From an uncultured Acidobacteriota bacterium (GTDB lineage: Bacteria; Acidobacteriota; UBA6911; RPQK01; JAPXNP01), in contig CAWGNQ010000005.1 of assembly GCA_963823995.1 (NCBI GenBank), positions 514,510 through 578,509 of the forward strand: 64,000 nucleotides of DNA. Reading direction: 5' to 3'. Positions 2,369 to 61,416 of the stretch are shown here, one piece after another (within the stretch, counting starts at the first letter, position 1; each line of letters starts with the position of its first letter). The position numbers and the translations under genes are program-made. Under the pieces are notes generated by a model. That model searched no databases and was not told the DNA's origin. It was given only the letters and a program-made list of their open reading frames with translations.

Positions 2369-4454
2369 ATGTGTATTGACAGTCTGCGAAATCGACCCGG
2401 GCGGCGGCTCGGTCTCTGGTCAGCCATATTGCTGCCGACCGTATTCATTTCAGTGATGCTTTCGGCGGCCTTGGGCGCCGACTCGGATATTCGCTTCAAT
2501 TCTCTCGGGTTCCTCCCTGATATGCCGAAAAAGGCTTCCATTGCCGCCCAAGCCTCTGGCTTCACGCTGCGGAAGGTTTCCGATGACTCGACGGTCTTCG
2601 CAGGTGCCGCGACGGGACCGACGCATAGCTCCGACACGAACGAGGATCTGTGGACGGCCGACTTTTCTTCGGTCACCGAGCCGGGACAGTACTATCTTTC
2701 GGTGGAGGGCGTCGGTCGGACACCCACGTTCCCGATCGGCGAAGATGCCTATGACTTCGCCTTCTACACGGTGATGCGCGGCTTTTACCTCTGGCGCTGC
2801 GGCACGGCGGTCAGCGGCTGGTTTGGGCCGGACCACTATGAGACGCAGGCTTGCCATCTCAACGACGGGTGGCAGGACTACACGACGGGCGAGCACACCC
2901 GGCGCGACGGCACGCAGGGATGGCACGACGCCGGCGACTACGGGAAATACGTGGTCAATGCGGGCGTGACGATGGGCCTGCTGTTCAAGGCCTGGGAGCA
3001 CTACCAGAGCAGAATCGAAGCAGTCCGACTGGATCTGCCGGAAACGGCCCCGGGCCTTCCCGACTTTCTCGAGGAACTCGAGTGGGAACTGGACTGGCTG
3101 CTGAAGATGCAACTCGCGGACGGCAGCGGCAAGGTCTCGCACAAGCTGACGGCCCACGGTTTCTCGGCTTTCATCATGCCTCAGAACGATCACTCGGAGC
3201 GATTCTTCACCGACTGGAGCTCGGCCGCCACGGCGGACTTCGTGGCCATCATGTCCACCGCCGCCCGCTTGTTCCGTCCCTACGACCCGGCCTATGCCGA
3301 TCGCTGCCTGGCCGCGGCCCGGACGAGTTACGACTTCCTCAAGGAGCATCCCGCCAACAAGGATCCGGACCTTTCGGATTTCAGCACGGGCGGCTATACG
3401 ACGGGTGATTCGGACGACCGCCTCTGGGCGGCTGCCGAGCTTTGGGAGACGACCGGAGACGCCGAGGTGCTGGCCGATTTCGAAAGCCGCACGGCCGCCG
3501 GTCGCAACTTCAACGTCGACTTCGACTGGGGAAACGTCCGAAACCTGGGATTCCTGACCTATCTGGAATCGAGCCGCCCCGGCCGCAACCAAACGATCGT
3601 CAGCACCCTCAGGGCCACCCTCACGTCGGCCGCCGACCAGATCGTCCAGACCGCCCAGTCCAATGCCTATGCCCGCCCTCTCGGCAGCTCGTACTATTGG
3701 GGCTGCAACGGCGGCGTGGCGCGTCAGACACTGCTGTTGCAAAGCGCCTACCGGATCGATCCCAAGCCGGAGTACCGAACCACGGCCCTGGACGCTATCG
3801 CGCATCTGTTCGGACGTAACTACTATCGAAGGTCCTTCGTGACCGGCCTCGGCGTCGAACCTCCGCTTCATCCCCATGACCGGCGCTCGGGAGCGGACGG
3901 GATTGACAATCCCTGGCCCGGGTATCTAGTGGGGGGTGCTCAACAAAATGCGCTCGATTGGCACGACGTCGAGGCGAGCTATCAGACCAACGAGATCGCC
4001 ATCAACTGGCAGGCGGCCCTGGTCTACGCGCTGGCCGGGTTCCTGTCCGGCAATGCGGAGCCTGCCGTTTTTTCCCCAGCTCGCTCTGGGAGGAGGCTAC
4101 CGATGCATCATGCTGGTCAGCAACAAGGCCGATACGCCCTGGACCGGCAGCATGCGGACCTTCCAGCACAACCAGGAACCCTGGAACGTGACCGTCCTCG
4201 AAAGTGGAGACTCGAGGGGGCAGGATTCCAGGTTCGCGATTGAGCTGCCCGCGAATTCGACGCGCAAGTTCATTCTGACCAGCGAGGAACCCCTCGCCGC
4301 AGGCTATCTGGAATTGTCAGGCGCCGGCGAATCGGTGCCGGGAGACCTGGCCGTCTCATTCTTCTACAACTACGTGGTCAATGGTCGACTGGTGGACTCG
4401 GTAGGTGTCCCCGCGATCGAAGGCCGAACGAATTTCCAGTTGCCCATCAGGTGA
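2369..4454 (+). CDS. Glycoside hydrolase family 9 endoglucanase with N-terminal CelD-like Ig domain; reading frame broken by a +1 shift at a T6C4 run (~4070-4080)
   Basis: GH9 signatures DAGDYGKYVVNAGVTMG, HDRRS, DWHDVEASYQTNEIAINWQAALVYALAGF. CelD_N-like region upstream. After a T6 homopolymer (gccgttttttcccc) the protein continues in frame 0 (PQLALGGGYRCIMLVSNK... to the stop at 4454). Removing one T restores a single ORF. Start at 2369 (MCIDSLRNRPGRRLGLWSAILL, signal/TM, GAGG 5 nt upstream) is inferred. The ORF track begins at 2144. Confidence 0.75.
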
Positions 4455-6164: not shown

Positions 6165-6237
6165 TAGCCCCAACGGGATTCGAACCCGTGTTACCGGCGT
6201 GAGAGGCCGGCGTCCTAGTCCTCTAGACGATGGGGCC
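6165..6237 (-). tRNA. tRNA-Glu (anticodon CUC)
   Basis: Minus-strand sequence GGCCCCATCGTCTAGAGGACTAGGACGCCGGCCTCTCACGCCGGTAACACGGGTTCGAATCCCGTTGGGGCTA folds as a cloverleaf nearly collinear with E. coli tRNA-Glu. Anticodon loop CUCUCAC (U33, CUC, A37). T-loop TTCGAAT. CCA not encoded. Confidence 0.85.
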
Positions 6238-16206: not shown

Positions 16207-19062
16207 ATGCGACTCAGATTGCTGCAGTTGATGCTTGGCGGCGCACTTCTGTTGACCGGCTTGGCACTGGGCCAGAGCCAGAAGGAACCGATCTATGTAG
16301 GAGCTCGGGCCTGCGGTCAGTGTCACGACGGCCCGGGAATGGGGCATCAGTTCAGCCAGTGGATCGTCTCGAAGCACGCCCGCGCCTACGCCGTCCTGTC
16401 CAAGCCCGAAGCCAAAGAGATCGCCCGTCTGAGCGGAATTCCGCAGGAGCCGCAGGAGTCCGCGATGTGCCTCGGGTGTCACGCCACGGGAGCCGAGGTC
16501 GAGGATTGGGAACGCGAAGACGGGTTCCGGATCGAAGACGGTGTCCAATGCGAGAAATGTCACGGGGCCGGCAGCGAATATATGGACGCTGAGGTGATGA
16601 AGAATCCCGACGCGGCCATGCGTGCCGGTCTGCGCAAGATCCGGCTGTCCGATTGTCAGATGTGTCACAACGAGAAGGGTTCTCACGTAGCCGTGCACAA
16701 GCTCCCGAAGCTGGATATGGAGGAAGCCTGGAAACGCCTGGCCCATCCGATGCCGGAGAATCCCACCACGGCCACCGTCGAGATCCCGACGGGTCAGGCC
16801 AGTGAGGGGTCCGCCGGACACAAGTTCGTAGGAGCCCACGCCTGCGGGTCCTGCCACCGCTCCGCCTCGATGGGATTTCAATGGAGCCGTTGGCGCTTGT
16901 CTGCGCATTCTGGAGCCTTTGGGCGCCTTGCGACCGAACAGGCCTATGCTGTTGCCCGCGAAGCAGGAGTCGAGGGTAATCCCCAGGAGAGCCCACAGTG
17001 TCTCCGATGTCATACGACCGGAGGAGGCGATCTTTCCGGCGCGCTGCCCTCCTTCACGCTCGACGAGGGCGTCGGATGCGAGGCTTGTCACGGCCCTGGG
17101 AGCGACTATCAAGCAGAAGCCGTGATGCGGGACGGGACCGCCGCCACCCAGGCCGGTCTTCAGATTGCCGATCGGGAGAAATGCCTCACCTGCCACGACG
17201 AGGCCCACGGGAAGCCCTTCGATTACGCCGCAGCCTGGAAGAAGATCGCGCATCCCAACGCCCCGCCGGAAGTGGTCCGGGAGGTCCGCTACAAGAATCC
17301 GCTGAACCTGGCCCTGTCACCCGACGGGAAGGAGCTCTACGTGACCTGCGAGGCTTCCGATTCCGTCATCGTGATCGATGCCGTGGCACATCGCAAGGTG
17401 GCCGAAATCCCGGTAGGAGGACAGCCTCATGATGTCGCGTTCAGCCCCGACGGTCGGTTCGCGTATGTCACGAACCGGCTCGACGACAGCCTTTCGGAGA
17501 TCGACACCACGACTCGTACCGTGACACGGACGGCACCGGTCGGCGACGAACCTCATGCACTCCTCACCAATCGGGAGGGGAACCGGATCTACGTGCTCAA
17601 CTCGTCGGAAGACAGCATCTCCATTCTCGACTCTTCGACGCTTCAGGAAGTCAAACGGCTGACCGCCAGCCGTTATCCCTGGTCGATGGCGCTCTCGCCC
17701 GACGGAGAACAGCTCCTGGTCACCAATTCCCTCTCGCGGTTCGTCCCGTTCCGGACATCCTCAGTTTCGGAACTGACCGTGGTCGGTACAGAGCGGAACC
17801 TCGTCGATGATCGCTACGCCGTCGACGGCACCAACCTGCTGCAGGGCGTGACCTGGCACCCGAGTGGAGACTACGCCCTCTTTACGCTGCTTCGTACCAA
17901 GAACCTGGTACCCATGACCCGGTTGGCGCAGGGCTGGACGATCACGAACGGGCTGGGTATCGCCTGGAAGGACGGCCGGATCGACCAGGTTCTGCTCGAC
18001 GAGCCGGACATGTGCTTCCCGGATCCGGCCGGCGTCGCCATTTCTCCCGATGGCCGGTATGCTTTCGTGACCAGTGCGAGTCTCGACCGTGTCGCGGTCG
18101 TCGACCTCGCAAAGCTGGTCGGCATTCTGCAGTCCGTGTCGGATGCAGAGCGGAAACAAGTGATCCCCAACCACCTTGGATTTCCGACCGAGTTCATCGT
18201 CAAGAGGATACCGACCCGCCACAGCCCGCGGGGGGTGGTCTTCAGTGCGGACGGCCGGACCGCGTTCGTCGCCAACTGCCTTGACGATTCGATCACCACG
18301 ATCGACGTCGCGTCACTCGAAGCCACCGAGCGGATCGATCTGGGTGGACCGAAGAAGATCACGAAGGCCCGACTGGGTGAACAGCTTTTCCACAATGCCA
18401 AGATCACGTTCCACCGCGAGTTCTCTTGCCACTCCTGTCATCCCGACGGCCATGTGGACGGAATCACGTATGACATCGAACCGGACGGCGTCGGCGTCAG
18501 CCCGGTCGACAACCGGACGCTGCGGGGCATTCTCGATACGGCTCCCTTCAAATGGGAAGGTACCAACCCCAGCCTGCAACGCCAGTGCGGTCCGCGCCTC
18601 GCTGTCTTCTTCACCCGGATTCAGCCTTTTACACCGGAAGAACTGTCGGCACTCGATCTCTACATTTCCACCATCACCCGACCACCCAACCGATACCGGC
18701 CCCTGGGAGCCGAACTCACTCCCGCCCAGCGCCGCGGACGGGCGGTCTTCGAAAGAACCGTGACGAACGACGGTCGGCTTCTGCTTCCGGAGCAGCAGTG
18801 CGTTTTCTGTCATCCGCCACCGCTCTATACGAACCGACGGAAGTTCGACGTCGGAACGCGGATGCAGTACGACCGCGAGGTCCGGTTCGATGTTCCGCAC
18901 CTCAACAACATCTACGACTCCGCGCCCTATCTACACAACGGAATCGCTCCGACCCTCGAGGAAATCTGGACGGTACACAATCCGAACGACAGCCACGGTG
19001 TGACCAACGATCTGACCAAGGATCAGCTCAACGATTTGATCGAGTACATCAAGACGTTCTGA
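16207..19062 (+). CDS. Multi-domain c-type cytochrome: two tandem tetraheme modules (8 CxxCH), a YVTN-type beta-propeller, and a C-terminal di-heme cytochrome c peroxidase/MauG-like domain (2 CxxCH)
   Basis: N-terminal CxxCH motifs CGQCH, CLGCH, CEKCH, CQMCH, CGSCH, CLRCH, CEACH, CLTCH, arranged as an internal duplication of ~175 aa. Central repeats of the SPDG..YVTN type (ALSPDGKELYVT, AFSPDGRFAYVTN, ALSPDGEQLLVTN, AISPDGRYAFVTS, VFSADGRTAFVAN). C-terminal FSCHSCHPDG ... CVFCHPPPLYT resembles the CCP/MauG fold. Signal peptide present. Confidence 0.85.
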   Translation: MRLRLLQLMLGGALLLTGLALGQSQKEPIYVGARACGQCHDGPGMGHQFSQWIVSKHARAYAVLSKPEAKEIARLSGIPQEPQESAMCLGCHATGAEVEDWEREDGFRIEDGVQCEKCHGAGSEYMDAEVMKNPDAAMRAGLRKIRLSDCQMCHNEKGSHVAVHKLPKLDMEEAWKRLAHPMPENPTTATVEIPTGQASEGSAGHKFVGAHACGSCHRSASMGFQWSRWRLSAHSGAFGRLATEQAYAVAREAGVEGNPQESPQCLRCHTTGGGDLSGALPSFTLDEGVGCEACHGPGSDYQAEAVMRDGTAATQAGLQIADREKCLTCHDEAHGKPFDYAAAWKKIAHPNAPPEVVREVRYKNPLNLALSPDGKELYVTCEASDSVIVIDAVAHRKVAEIPVGGQPHDVAFSPDGRFAYVTNRLDDSLSEIDTTTRTVTRTAPVGDEPHALLTNREGNRIYVLNSSEDSISILDSSTLQEVKRLTASRYPWSMALSPDGEQLLVTNSLSRFVPFRTSSVSELTVVGTERNLVDDRYAVDGTNLLQGVTWHPSGDYALFTLLRTKNLVPMTRLAQGWTITNGLGIAWKDGRIDQVLLDEPDMCFPDPAGVAISPDGRYAFVTSASLDRVAVVDLAKLVGILQSVSDAERKQVIPNHLGFPTEFIVKRIPTRHSPRGVVFSADGRTAFVANCLDDSITTIDVASLEATERIDLGGPKKITKARLGEQLFHNAKITFHREFSCHSCHPDGHVDGITYDIEPDGVGVSPVDNRTLRGILDTAPFKWEGTNPSLQRQCGPRLAVFFTRIQPFTPEELSALDLYISTITRPPNRYRPLGAELTPAQRRGRAVFERTVTNDGRLLLPEQQCVFCHPPPLYTNRRKFDVGTRMQYDREVRFDVPHLNNIYDSAPYLHNGIAPTLEEIWTVHNPNDSHGVTNDLTKDQLNDLIEYIKTF

Positions 19063-53196: not shown

Positions 53197-53284
53197 TGGT
53201 GCCGGAGGCGGGATTTGAACCCGCACACCCTTTCGGGCGCCACCCCCTCAAGATGGTGTGTCTGCCAAGTTCCACCACTCCGGC
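53197..53284 (-). tRNA. tRNA-Leu (anticodon GAG) with long variable arm and encoded CCA
   Basis: Minus-strand GCCGGAGTGGTGGAACTTGGCAGACACACCATCTTGAGGGGGTGGCGCCCGAAAGGGTGTGCGGGTTCAAATCCCGCCTCCGGCACCA. Acceptor GCCGGAG/CTCCGGC. Anticodon stem CCATC/GGTGG with loop TTGAGGG (U33, GAG). T-loop TTCAAAT. Confidence 0.9.
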
Positions 53285-57873: not shown

Positions 57874-58899
57874 TCATATCCGACGAAAGAGTAACAGAGA
57901 AAACGCTCGTTCCGGGTCTGTGTACTCGGTCACCAACTCGACCCCAAAGGCGGCAATCTGCTCGGCAAGACGCCCCGCTTCGAATTTCCGACTCACCTCG
58001 ACGAGGATTCTGTCTCCTTTGTCCCAGACCAGTTTCCGGCCGATGGATCGGAACCTTGCACGACCCGGTCGGAGTGCACGTACCCACATCTCCATCTGCT
58101 GCCACGCTTCGTTGAAGACCGGCTCATATGCGAAATCGGAGGGATCGAAATCACTCTCCACGATTCCGTTGAGGGCATGAAAGACATTCAGGATGAACGA
58201 ACGAGTCACACCCGCCGAGTCATTGTAGGCCCGTTCGATCAACTCCCGCTCCTTCAGACCGTCGACACCCAGCAGAAACAGATCATCCGGACCCAGAGCG
58301 GCAGTTACCGACGAGAGAAATTGAACCAGCTCGGTCCGGGGGAAGTTTCCAATGCTGCTGCCCAGGAAGATGACCAGCTTGGGCAGGCTCGGATCCAGAT
58401 CGGGCAGCGCCTGCTCCAGAGCGGCATGCAGTCCCAGGACTCGCAGTTCGGTGAAGTCCCGCTGCAGAGCGTCCCGGGCTTCCCGCAGGGCGCTCCGACT
58501 CACGTCGATAGGCACGAAGGTCCCCCGCCCCCTGCCGTCCATCATGCTTCGAATGAGGTGACGCGTTTTGACGGAGGCTCCCGCGCCAATCTCCACCAGA
58601 TGATCGGTCCGTGCCTGCTTCATAATGGTGCGGGCATTCGCTTCGAGAAGAGCGTTCTCCGTGCGCGTCAGGTAGTACTCCGGAAGGCTGCAGATCGCCT
58701 CGAACAGTTCGGAACCCCGCTTGTCATAGAGGAAGCGAGCCTCCAGCCAACGCGGCTGGTCGGTCAGAGTTCGATAGATCCGCAGTGCCAGAATCTCCTC
58801 CCGGGCCGGCGGCTGGTGCCAAAGGCCATCTTCCACGAAATTCCAGCGATGACAGGCATCGGCTCTCAGAATGCTGCAGACACGGCGAGCGTCATCCAC
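57874..58899 (-). CDS. EgtD-like SAM-dependent histidine N-alpha-methyltransferase (Methyltransf_33)
   Basis: EYYLTRTE, VEIGAGASVKT and IGNF motifs characteristic of EgtD/OvoA-type methyltransferases. No egtB seen in the window. Confidence 0.75.
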   Translation of the reverse strand: MDDARRVCSILRADACHRWNFVEDGLWHQPPAREEILALRIYRTLTDQPRWLEARFLYDKRGSELFEAICSLPEYYLTRTENALLEANARTIMKQARTDHLVEIGAGASVKTRHLIRSMMDGRGRGTFVPIDVSRSALREARDALQRDFTELRVLGLHAALEQALPDLDPSLPKLVIFLGSSIGNFPRTELVQFLSSVTAALGPDDLFLLGVDGLKERELIERAYNDSAGVTRSFILNVFHALNGIVESDFDPSDFAYEPVFNEAWQQMEMWVRALRPGRARFRSIGRKLVWDKGDRILVEVSRKFEAGRLAEQIAAFGVELVTEYTDPERAFSLLLFRRI

Positions 58900-61226
58900 G
58901 CCACACCCCCGTCGGATTGGATCTCCGGCCGGATCTCATCCCCGGTTCGGATGCCAGAAACCCACGATAGGCTTCGGGGAATACCTTGGGGCGGCCGTCC
59001 TCTCCGGTGAAGAGATGGCGGGTGAAACCCGCGGCGACGAGTCGACCCTCCGTGTCGATCACCTGATAATCGAAAGTCATTGCACGGCTCCGGAATTCCG
59101 TGACACGGGTCCGCACCACGAGGTGAGTCGCCCGGGGGAGTCTCACCCCCAGGCGCTCGCAGAACCGTACTTGAACCTCTCAGCTCATACGGCTCCCATC
59201 ATCCAGTCGCAGGCCGCAGCCCCAACAGGTACCAATGGGCAAACAGTCTGGGCTCACGACGGGCAAGGCCGCCCAGCCAATGCTCGGCCCGGCGCCGATG
59301 TCCGCGCAGCCTTTTGTACTTCCGCATGGCCCACCGGACCAGCAGACCATTAAAGTGCCGGAAGACCGCATACAGGGCGGACGGGTAGAATCGGCCGTAG
59401 TACTGAATCCAGCCCCGAAGAACCGGGTTCCACATGCGCGCAAGATCGTCGATGTCCTTGTTGCTCCGCAGGTGAATTCGCCAGCTCCGCATGGCCTGAC
59501 GCATCTTCTTCGCCGCTTCGTTGCTGACTGCCGGTGAGAAGTTGATGAAGCATTTGCCCGATCGGTTCTTCGACCGTCGCGGCTGAAACGTGTACCCCAG
59601 GAAGCTGAACTTCTCTTCAGGATACCGCCCACGACGGTCTTCATCCTTGCAATAGACGATCTTCGTCTTGCTGGGATGCACCTCCAGTTTGCACCTCCGA
59701 AGCCGTTCGACGATACGGCTCAGCATTTGCCTCGCGTGCTCCTCCGTCTTGCAGTGCGCCACGATATCATCCGCGTACCTCGCAAACGGCACCTCCGGAT
59801 GCTCACAAGCCATCCAGGTATCGAACGCGAGATGCAGGAAGATGTTGGCTATCAAAGGACTAATCACCCCACCCTGTGGGGTTCGCCGATCTCGTTTGAC
59901 CAGCGTTCCATCATCGAGCTGTAATGGGGCTTTGAGCCACCGCCCGATGTACAGCAGGATCCACCGGCAATCGGTGTACTTCCGCACGGCCCGAAGTACG
60001 AGCTCATGATCGAGGTTGTCGAAGAAGCCGCGGATGTCGAGATCGATCACCCAGTCGTTTTGCCAGCACCGCTTGCGCGTCGTTGCCAACGCCTGATGGG
60101 CCGACTTGCCCGCACGATACCCATAGGAGTCCGGATGGAACTGCGGTTCCACCTTGGGCTCCAGATACATCCGGGCCACCGCCTGCGCGATTCGATCCCC
60201 GACCGTGGGGATCCCCAACCTCCTCTCGCCGCCATCCTTCTTTGGTATCGCTACCGATCGAACGGGCGGCGGGAAGTACGTTCCCGACGACATGCGATTC
60301 CAGATCTTGTAGAGGTTGTTCTTGAGATCCCTCTCGAACTCCTCCAAGGATTCGGAATCCACTCCAGCCGCTCCTTGGTTCGCCTTGACGCGTTGGTACG
60401 CCTCCCAGACGACCTTCTTGGAAATATCAAACGACTTCGCTTGGCTGATGAGCTCCTCCCACTGCGTGGTTGGCCCATGATCTCCGCTGGATAACACGAC
60501 CCCTTCGCTCCATCCCGTTTCCGGGACTTCTCCGCTACTACGGGCCATTCCGCCCCTTCGCCTCGCCTCGGTACTCTCATCCTTGTGGGACCTCCACTTG
60601 GATTTCTCCCTTCGCATCGAGGCGGAAGGTTCCCACGTTCCGCACAACCGCCTGATCCAGGCTCACGCCACCTCTATGCCGGGCGCCGCACGGGCAGTAA
60701 CAGGTCTCTCCCGTACTGGTCCCAGAGTAACGACTCGCTCTGGTTTTGACGCCGTCCCTACGCTTTCGACACGTTTCCGGTGGTTCATTCGCTTCGTCTT
60801 CCTGGACCTCACCTGACACAGTCATGCTGCGCCTTTTCCGTCACGCTCACCACCATGGCTTTTGTCCACAGCAGCTGACGGCGGTTTGAAGCCTGCTCCT
60901 GCAAGCCGGCTCCAAGAGCCTCCCTCATCAGTTGTGCAGCAAAGCTGCATTCAGTTGGCTGTTACAGCCTCCTTCCTGCGCCATCGTGGCGCACAGTCGT
61001 CGTCATAACTGAGCGACCGATGGTAGCGGCAAACCGTTTCGATCACGGGCAGGAAAGTCTTCGTCTCCCGTTCCAGATCGGCATAGCTGAAGCCGTGCGC
61101 GCGGCAGAAGTCCGTGCGCGCCACTTCGAACCAGACGAAGTAGTTCGCGTAGTAGGCTCGACCCATCTGATCCGTTTCCGCGTACCGGACGCGCAACCTA
61201 ACGTCCACAAAGTCACAGGAGTCCAT
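58892..61226 (-). CDS. Hotdog-fold (4HBT/YbgC-family) acyl-CoA thioesterase interrupted by a group II intron; exon 1 is 61226 down to about 60995, exon 2 is 59122 down to 58892
   Basis: Exon 1 encodes MDSCDFVDVRLRVRYAETDQMGRAYYANYFVWFEVARTDF...LPVIETVCRYHRSLSYDDD. Exon 2 encodes LVVRTRVTEFRSRAMTFDYQVIDTEGRLVAAGFTRHLF... Joined, they give a contiguous thioesterase of about 150 aa (motif TRVTEFRSR). Both exons are 231 nt. Confidence 0.75.
59123..60994 (-). mobile_element. Group II intron (about 1.87 kb) with intron-encoded reverse transcriptase/maturase, inserted in the sense orientation in the thioesterase ORF
   Basis: 5' end GTGCGCC immediately after exon codons gac gac gac (minus strand, at about 60994). 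Domain V GAGCCGTATGAGCTGAGAGGTTCAAGTACGGTTC (59195 down to 59162). Domain VI with a bulged A 6 nt before the 3' end, which terminates in ...CAC (59123). IEP ORF lies in between. Confidence 0.85.
59199..60548 (-). CDS. Group II intron-encoded protein (reverse transcriptase/maturase)
   Basis: RT motifs GAAGVD, GIPTVGDRIAQ, GGVISPLIANIFL, YADD. Maturase/X domain WIQYYGRFYP. Start uncertain: ATG at 60548, or the upstream 60617 or 60647. Confidence 0.85.
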   Translation of the reverse strand: MARSSGEVPETGWSEGVVLSSGDHGPTTQWEELISQAKSFDISKKVVWEAYQRVKANQGAAGVDSESLEEFERDLKNNLYKIWNRMSSGTYFPPPVRSVAIPKKDGGERRLGIPTVGDRIAQAVARMYLEPKVEPQFHPDSYGYRAGKSAHQALATTRKRCWQNDWVIDLDIRGFFDNLDHELVLRAVRKYTDCRWILLYIGRWLKAPLQLDDGTLVKRDRRTPQGGVISPLIANIFLHLAFDTWMACEHPEVPFARYADDIVAHCKTEEHARQMLSRIVERLRRCKLEVHPSKTKIVYCKDEDRRGRYPEEKFSFLGYTFQPRRSKNRSGKCFINFSPAVSNEAAKKMRQAMRSWRIHLRSNKDIDDLARMWNPVLRGWIQYYGRFYPSALYAVFRHFNGLLVRWAMRKYKRLRGHRRRAEHWLGGLARREPRLFAHWYLLGLRPATG

Positions 61227-61416
61227 GAATGCCGATGGTATCGAATCAGACCCCGATTCGAACAGGGTCCAGACGAACTCCGATCCCCGGATTCGGGAGA
61301 CGATCCGGGTCTGTGGTACAAAGCGGACTGAGCTTGAGAGAATCACTCCAGCCCTCTCCTCGCCGGGAGCATATCCCATTCGGAACTGCTATCGTGTCAC
61401 GAGGACACCACGCGTC

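Follow-up and report, generated by a model that had tools for sequence, protein, structure and literature searches.

Among the described group II introns, the closest counterparts of the element discussed here are RmInt1 and the endonuclease-less IIB-like introns of bacterial classes D, E and F (nomenclature of Zimmerly and Toro), whose intron-encoded protein (IEP) of about 420-450 amino acids (aa) combines a reverse transcriptase with a maturase and lacks the endonuclease (D/En) domain. RmInt1-type introns are about 1.9 kb in size, begin with 5' GUGCG, find their targets by base pairing through the exon-binding sites EBS1 and EBS2 in domain I, carry a domain V of 34 nucleotides (nt) and occur in multiple copies. 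They make occasional ectopic insertions resembling the homing site (PMC1802570, PMC5894124), and a preference for the lagging-strand template is reported for RmInt1 and other endonuclease-less introns (PMC8914252, PMC6698660). Homing to a conserved site in other introns has been described for Methanosarcina acetivorans and for TeI3/TeI4 of Thermosynechococcus elongatus (PMC4424553, PMC2882425). Bacterial group II introns are mostly found outside housekeeping genes, while a minority interrupts recA, radC, groEL and others (PMC4424553, PMC12584367). An intron that resembles the RmInt1 type in its protein, size, 5' end, exon-binding sites, domain V and occurrence in multiple copies was found in a 64,000-nt stretch of an uncultured Acidobacteriota bacterium (GenBank assembly GCA_963823995.1, contig CAWGNQ010000005.1, positions 514,510 to 578,509; hereafter the window), where it interrupts the coding sequence of a thioesterase. 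We consider it quite probable that this is a recent ectopic insertion of an endonuclease-less intron, whose lineage targets the DNA encoding the reverse-transcriptase motif YADD, into a look-alike site of the thioesterase gene.

The element, a complete IIB-like group II intron encoding a protein without an endonuclease domain, lies in sense orientation inside the coding sequence. Its main parts and the two exons are as follows.

59122-60994, minus strand: complete group II intron of 1,873 nt, from 5' GUGCG to 3' ...CUCACC, recognised by Rfam matches and delimited by intron-less alleles
60995-61226, minus strand: thioesterase exon 1, 232 nt, comprising 77 codons and the T of Phe78, from the translation and intron-less alleles
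58892-59121, minus strand: thioesterase exon 2, 230 nt, comprising the last two bases of Phe78, 75 codons and the stop, from intron-less alleles and homologues
60811-60926, minus strand: domain I segment, match to RF01999 (group-II-D1D4-2) with 103.5 bits and E 3e-20 against a gathering score of 36
59199-60548, minus strand: open reading frame (ORF) of the IEP, 449 aa, with RVT_1 and GIIM (X) domains and YADD, from Pfam and NCBIfam
59162-59195, minus strand: domain V, 34 nt, with the AGC catalytic triad, from the RF00029 alignment
59125-59158, minus strand: domain VI with the bulged branch-point A at 59128, from the RF00029 alignment and sequence reading

The GUGCG at 60994-60990 forms the 5' end of the intron, and the RF00029 match (domains V and VI) at 59122-59197 on the minus strand reaches 56.4 bits (gathering score 40), with the bulged A as the seventh nucleotide counted from the 3' end. 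For the 5' 445 nt upstream of the intron ORF, RNAalifold with 16 family members gave a consensus fold of 116 pairs, 54 of which show compensatory changes; the fold covers this region as a whole. The bounds were fixed by the intron-less alleles L001, L094 and L095, in which the junction, after T60995, reads GACGACGACT/TCGTGGTG (a slash marks the insertion point throughout). L001, an orthologue with about 96% identity over the coding sequence, gives the wider junction as TATGACGACGACT/TCGTGGTGCGG. The bounds are unambiguous because the two junctions share no repeated bases, and relative to the intron-less alleles host bases were neither duplicated nor lost. The codon of Phe78 (T/TC) is split after its first base, which places the intron in phase 1, and the intron length is not a multiple of 3. 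No second group II intron signature was detected by Rfam in the window. A domain V pattern match at 18510-18544 (three mismatches, obtained with a pattern of wrong loop spacing) was uninformative, given the absence of a second Rfam intron, and weak Rfam matches to CC3552 sRNA (E 0.69) and CRISPR-DR58 (E 0.42), far under the gathering scores, were dismissed as chance.

The IEP scores 135 bits for RVT_1, 60 bits for GIIM and 417.7 bits for TIGR04416 (cut-off 300), and its active-site motif reads RYADD. No D/En (HNH) endonuclease domain was found in it by Pfam, the GIIM match stopping 29 aa before the C-terminus. It is identical to protein P0121, and a 99%-identical protein, P0122, was found on eight contigs. 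Relatives of the IEP occur in Pelotomaculum and Syntrophomonas, which host reference introns of class F and class E, respectively (PMC3753933), and a full-length alignment of the intron to annotated rhizobial group II introns gave 68% nucleotide identity. The missing D/En domain would fit the endonuclease-less IIB-like lineages (bacterial classes D, E and F). Class C (IIC), whose introns insert behind a terminator stem-loop or an attC site and lack EBS2, is a poor match, as the insertion lies inside a coding sequence, no upstream hairpin is present, and EBS2 is both present and conserved.

Judged by homology, the two flanking halves are one gene for a YbgC/FadM-type (4HBT hotdog) acyl-CoA thioesterase. 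The exon 1 ORF starts with the ATG at 61226, and the spliced coding sequence of 462 nt, which is wholly present in L094 and L095, encodes a protein of 153 aa. The joined halves match 4HBT_2 contiguously over profile positions 1-117, pass the cut-offs of both 4HBT and 4HBT_2, and score 85.5 bits against TIGR00051 YbgC/FadM (cut-off 68.7). There are more than 4,000 contiguous homologues, the nearest of which (P0001, 153 aa) is 95% identical from end to end. The junction residue is Phe in 13 of 16 aligned homologues, including all of the nearest (...YDDDF VVRTRV...), and D19 of the ETDQMG motif, the conserved N-terminal Asp, is invariant in 17 sequences. Taken together, the contiguous profile match, the full-length homologue and the exact coding sequence in the two intron-less contigs refute the notion of unrelated partial ORFs flanking an intergenic intron, which we regard as having practically no chance of being right. 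Exact look-ups of the exon 1 read-through products (91 and 142 aa) and of an 84-aa exon 2 ORF returned no match.

The sequence-only reading of this locus had recognised a group II intron from its GUGCG, domain V, domain VI with a bulged A and an IEP with YADD and an X domain, and had placed it in sense orientation within a hotdog thioesterase. That view is borne out by the RF01999 and RF00029 matches, by the foldable 5' region, by the contiguous homologues and by the ORF that precise removal restores, as in L094 and L095. Two of its details had to be corrected: the proposed junction GAC/CTC, with Leu opening LVV, is in fact GACT/TC, encoding Phe, with the 3' splice site 1 nt further downstream, and the insertion described as in frame splits the Phe codon rather than falling between codons.

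The origin of the intron becomes clearer from its siblings, which are 99.6% identical to the window copy at the DNA level. These copies (L006-L010) are nested in the reverse-transcriptase gene of a different group II intron, with an RVT_1 ORF on one side and a GIIM ORF on the other, and their junctions, ...TTT GCC GAT GAT A/ and ...TAC GCC GAC GAC G/, lie directly 3' of FADD and YADD. A scan with the IEP, taking one genome per species, recovered 79 loci from at least six phyla, including Acidobacteriota, Myxococcota and other 'Deltaproteobacteria', Bacillota, Chloroflexota, Planctomycetota, Legionella and others. Among these loci 48 unique insertion sites were mapped, and in 42 of the 48 the codons for Y/F-ADD stand directly 5' of the junction, the intron sitting after the first base that follows them in another group II reverse-transcriptase gene; two further sites have YCDD or YGDD in this place. 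One member, on pSymA of Sinorhizobium meliloti, is nested at RYADD/FVMGF; this match proved to be a further nested copy of the lineage and not RmInt1. The intron's own protein gene also contains a high-scoring target of the lineage.

59759-59780, minus strand: the intron's own YADD-coding site (AGGTACGCGGATGATA/TCGTGG), with a matrix score of 24.9 bits

In L021 a member is inserted at RYADD/IVAHC of a same-family protein, a position equivalent to this site, which indicates that the lineage can invade itself.

Target recognition can be traced to the following elements.

60729-60735, minus strand: EBS1, 5'-AGUCGUU-3', intron positions 260-266, in the terminal loop of the hairpin CCAGAG/CUCUGG, from the covariation-supported fold
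60758-60763, minus strand: EBS2, 5'-GCGUAG-3', intron positions 232-237, in an internal loop of domain I, from family conservation and the consensus fold
61008-61003 and 61001-60995, minus strand: the intron-binding sites IBS2 (UUAUGA) and IBS1 (GACGACU), separated by a spacer base, from their pairing to EBS2 and EBS1

EBS1 pairs with GAYGAYN, that is, the two Asp codons plus one base, and EBS2 with (C)UAYGC, the Tyr codon and the start of the Ala codon. Since G residues of the EBS face the synonymous third codon positions, GAC and GAU as well as UAC and UAU can all be paired. Both elements are nearly invariant across the lineage. The exception is L053, whose target is CTGGATGGACAACG/ and in which EBS2 (AUCCAG) and EBS1 (CGUUGUU) are both complementary to the exon; its 5' exon carries CUGGAU opposite EBS2 and ends with GACAACG opposite EBS1. 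The L053 site, GRWMDN/VFIERLW, is presumably an IS3-type transposase motif.

The thioesterase presents nearly the same target. At the insertion site its YDDDFVV is encoded by TAT GAC GAC GAC T/TC GTG GTG, which yields an EBS1/IBS1 pairing of seven out of seven positions (AGUCGUU with GACGACU, one pair being G-U) and an EBS2/IBS2 pairing of five out of six, the single mismatch being the A of the first Asp codon, where an Ala codon has C. The 3' exon is identical to that of YADD-FVV targets such as L023 (TAC GCG GAC GAC T/TC GTG GTG). A position weight matrix was built from the 48 sites and scored on both strands of the intron-less window; among the 124,212 positions the thioesterase site, with 20.9 bits, is the single best, the next reaching 15.4 bits and the family median being 23.2 bits. 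By this measure and by its predicted pairing, the thioesterase sequence is a mimic of the usual YADD target of the lineage. As to the strand, the plus-strand GC skew is -0.029 overall and -0.07 locally, and the G-rich strand, taken here as the lagging-strand template, is the one that carries the intron in sense, in agreement with the lagging-strand-template bias known for endonuclease-less introns. Gene-strand bias was also considered as a proxy for replication direction and proved uninformative, since the GC-rich sequence gives many spurious overlapping ORFs.

Several further observations concern the arrangement of the copies. Head-to-tail tandem or nested copies at one YADD site, in which the intron 3' end (...CTCACC) abuts the next 5' end (GTGCGCCACGAAGG...), were seen in L024, L038, L042, L043 and L051, all of them metagenome-assembled genomes (MAGs) of Vicinamibacterales, and some mapped elements measure about 2,575 nt. 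Extra-long IEP matches in Vicinamibacterales loci were examined as insertions in the IEP gene and rejected, the intron lengths being normal; their likeliest cause is a tblastn alignment running on from the inner IEP into the homologous rest of the outer host IEP. In L006 and L009 the outer (host) introns carry FADD in place of YADD, and FADD has been reported as characteristic of the 'g2' endonuclease-less introns of Toro (PMC3552965). L006 and L009 share a common 5' flank (the FADD host) with different 3' flanks, and L006, L007, L010 and L012 share one common 3' flank with different 5' flanks. Such shuffled flanks suggest that assembly joined different loci through the repeat, or that intron copies recombined with one another; L006, L007, L009 and L010 are contigs of ENA ERZ25039500 and ERZ25039549. 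In the L008 sibling (about 3350-3412) the first 456 nt are replaced by a G/GT-rich low-complexity tract, and this copy is probably a long-read assembly artefact or 5'-truncated. A few members occupy sites that do not encode a reverse transcriptase, namely L053 (an Anaerolineae MAG), L041/L046, L052 and L062; the sites other than that of L053 (SAGD, LAGD and YCDH) look ectopic, similar to the thioesterase site.

Such irregularities bear on the question of whether the repeat was simply misplaced into the thioesterase locus during assembly of the long-read MAG. The intron is a multi-copy repeat, contigs of the same community show chimeric flanks (L006/L009) and a poly-G artefact (L008), and only one contig carries the exact protein P0121. 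An assembly artefact would nevertheless have had to place the repeat with base accuracy at the best-fitting lineage target in 62 kb, with two canonical junctions and without duplication or loss of a host base. Moreover, a repeat misplaced in assembly would be expected to resemble the consensus of the other copies, and the inserted copy instead has variants of its own. We therefore judge this explanation very unlikely.

The age of the insertion is indicated by the alleles that lack it. L094 (ERR11594398) and L095 (ERR11523667) are short-read Logan contigs from other samples, and both match the intron-less window across the junction with 100.000% identity, over 5,995 and 5,190 nt respectively. 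The MAG assemblies L002-L004 are likewise without the intron, and all sampled orthologous thioesterase loci are uninterrupted; the sequence-only reading had proposed looking to related genomes for the unbroken gene, and L001-L005, L094 and L095 indeed carry it. Because the intron-less alleles in two other datasets are identical over 5-6 kb of flank, the insertion is, as far as these alleles tell, very recent and polymorphic. Of the two alternatives in the sequence-only reading, recent mobility is thereby strongly preferred; given the usual YADD target of the lineage, insertion into an ectopic look-alike describes it better than retrohoming to a cognate site.

The same alleles bear on the idea of a long-standing, domesticated intron in its cognate homing site, upon whose splicing the gene has long depended. 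Sense orientation, intact exons and an intact intron ORF would suit such an intron. Yet the empty alleles are identical, no orthologous locus in the sample is interrupted, none of the 48 mapped sites is another thioesterase, and the near-identity of the siblings indicates ongoing mobility, which together leave domestication as highly improbable.

The copy in the window carries changes of its own, which were defined against L006, L007 and L009, with L010 and further sibling contigs, so that each position is covered by four to eight siblings; at 60917-60919, copies other than L006, L007, L009 and L010 give no coverage.

60917-60919, minus strand: 2-nt deletion in the NNGGC loop of a domain I hairpin and C>U in its stem, relative to L006, L007, L009 and L010
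60701, minus strand: 1-nt deletion in the U-run of a conserved 16-nt terminal loop of domain I, from the sibling comparison
59885, minus strand: Gly>Arg in the invariant reverse-transcriptase motif GTPQGG (Gly in 48 of 48 relatives)
59462, minus strand: D>N in the X domain (Asp in 47 of 48 relatives)
60447 and 59560, minus strand: the other protein changes, M>I and W>S, respectively, from the sibling comparison

The NNGGC loop is conserved in all family members but one. Ordinary decay after insertion does not account for the changes, since the 6-kb flanks are free of differences from the empty allele.

Several points weigh against a recent ectopic insertion into a gene that splicing would restore. 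The window copy differs from every other sampled copy at eight positions, at all of which the siblings are canonical, and within the IEP the private changes comprise four non-synonymous and no synonymous ones. They may reflect an unsampled variant donor, possibly non-autonomous, or in part assembly errors. If the copy splices poorly, as it may, the gene would simply be inactivated. A canonical sibling (P0122) seems to reside in the same genome, resting solely on the fact that P0121 and P0122 are listed with the same longest contig of 2,152,364 nt. With regard to target recognition, the covariation between exon position -1 and the first EBS1 base is inconsistent across the family, and the GC-skew argument is weak for a 64-kb window. 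Finally, L094 and L095 could be spliced transcripts if the Logan runs were RNA libraries; against a transcript origin, both contigs run through divergent genes and intergenic DNA, and the MAGs L002-L004 lack the intron too.

A fresh knockout has to be weighed, in which a defective copy splices inefficiently, the two halves amount to a pseudogene and polar effects reach downstream genes. The private changes fall at otherwise invariant positions (the Gly>Arg of GTPQGG, the Asp>Asn of the X domain and two conserved domain I loops). Two other samples carry the empty allele, which shows that the occupied one has not reached fixation, and poor splicing in the natural host has been reported for RmInt1 (PMC5894124). 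On the other side stand exons that are 100% intact, an open intron ORF and canonical core elements (GUGCG, EBS1, EBS2, domain V with its AGC triad and domain VI with the branch A). In addition, a change in a reverse-transcriptase motif need not harm maturase function, canonical sibling proteins may act in trans, and some of the private differences could be assembly errors. A knockout is thus a serious possibility, to which we give somewhat less than an even chance, and the predicted splicing competence of the window copy is uncertain.

For the preferred explanation, an ectopic insertion of the YADD-targeting intron, we infer a course of events from the observed anatomy, bounds, empty allele, target preference and EBS/IBS complementarity. 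The EBS sites of the lineage are tuned to DNA encoding the reverse-transcriptase active site of other group II introns, and most economically an intron ribonucleoprotein would have reverse-spliced into the thioesterase look-alike as an ectopic event. By analogy with RmInt1, insertion probably took place on single-stranded DNA of the lagging-strand template, with the nascent strand as primer. Production of the full 153-aa thioesterase from the occupied allele would then need precise splicing of the intron from the operon transcript, the maturase for which may come in trans from canonical sibling copies, and efficient translation of the overlapping methyltransferase gene is possibly splicing-dependent too.

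That gene follows the thioesterase directly.

57874-58899, minus strand: Methyltransf_33 gene with a GTG start, downstream of the thioesterase, from the ORF list

The two genes overlap by 8 nt at 58892-58899 (GTGGATGA), from the methyltransferase GTG to the thioesterase stop, an arrangement that suggests an operon and possible translational coupling. The Methyltransf_33 neighbour is kept in order in L002-L005, L094 and L095, and the gene order of the uninterrupted loci is the same as in the window: MCP, radical SAM (divergent), thioesterase, Methyltransf_33, lipid A-type acyltransferase, GAPDH and PGK. Relatives, too, keep the thioesterase, methyltransferase and lipid A-type acyltransferase genes together beside a divergent B12-binding/radical-SAM gene. 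Start calls of the thioesterase differ, being 193 aa in L094 and L095 compared with 151-153 aa in the nearest homologues (61227-61416), and the radical-SAM ORF is 515 aa in the window (as the longest ORF) compared with 451 aa called elsewhere; the divergent intergenic region (61227-61416) is probably about 190 nt long. The window also holds an ordinary tRNA-Glu(CTC) at 6165-6237 and an ordinary tRNA-Leu(GAG) at 53197-53284, both on the minus strand and unrelated to the intron.

The case has practical and conceptual consequences. In annotation, the thioesterase would be called two fragments or a pseudogene, although splicing restores the 153-aa protein. Occupied and empty alleles with identical flanks offer a natural experiment on whether an endonuclease-less intron in a host operon is spliced efficiently enough to sustain the interrupted gene and the neighbour that may be translationally coupled to it. 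The 7+5 bp match supplied by Tyr-Asp-Asp-Asp-Phe codons illustrates how base-pairing-guided retroelements spill into host genes. A wider reading, which we put forward only tentatively and consider doubtful, sees in the cross-phylum lineage hyper-parasites of other retroelements, with their EBS fixed on the Y/F-ADD codons and G-U wobble absorbing the synonymous variation. If it were true, the victims could not mutate the target without losing activity, and the thioesterase insertion would be collateral damage. No description of YADD-codon targeting by an intron lineage was found in the literature searched, and a prior description is quite possible; if undescribed, it would be a clear example of a retroelement specialising on immutable catalytic codons of its relatives.

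Compared with the known systems, the lineage departs from RmInt1 in its cognate site, which for RmInt1 is the transposase gene of ISRm2011-2 and here is the YADD-coding stretch of group II reverse-transcriptase genes. Twintrons provide a second parallel, as nested and head-to-tail copies occur among the relatives of the window intron as well. The inner introns of T. elongatus, however, enter the outer ORF between its first two ATGs, whereas this lineage inserts at the catalytic YADD codons. Being flanked by thioesterase exons, the window copy does not form part of a twintron; the siblings L006-L010 alone are nested. A third parallel is given by introns in host genes, such as Geobacillus kaustophilus recA, Oceanobacillus iheyensis radC, the groEL stop codon in Azotobacter and E. 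coli, and Trichodesmium, which resemble the present case in their sense orientation within or at the end of the host ORF. Normal host expression requires their splicing (PMC4424553, PMC12584367), as is predicted for the thioesterase. Those introns belong mostly to the CL or ML lineage, some of them in specialised cognate sites, whereas the window intron is endonuclease-less, polymorphic and lodged in a non-cognate look-alike. The thioesterase case combines intron behaviours that are already known and is otherwise an ordinary kind of event.

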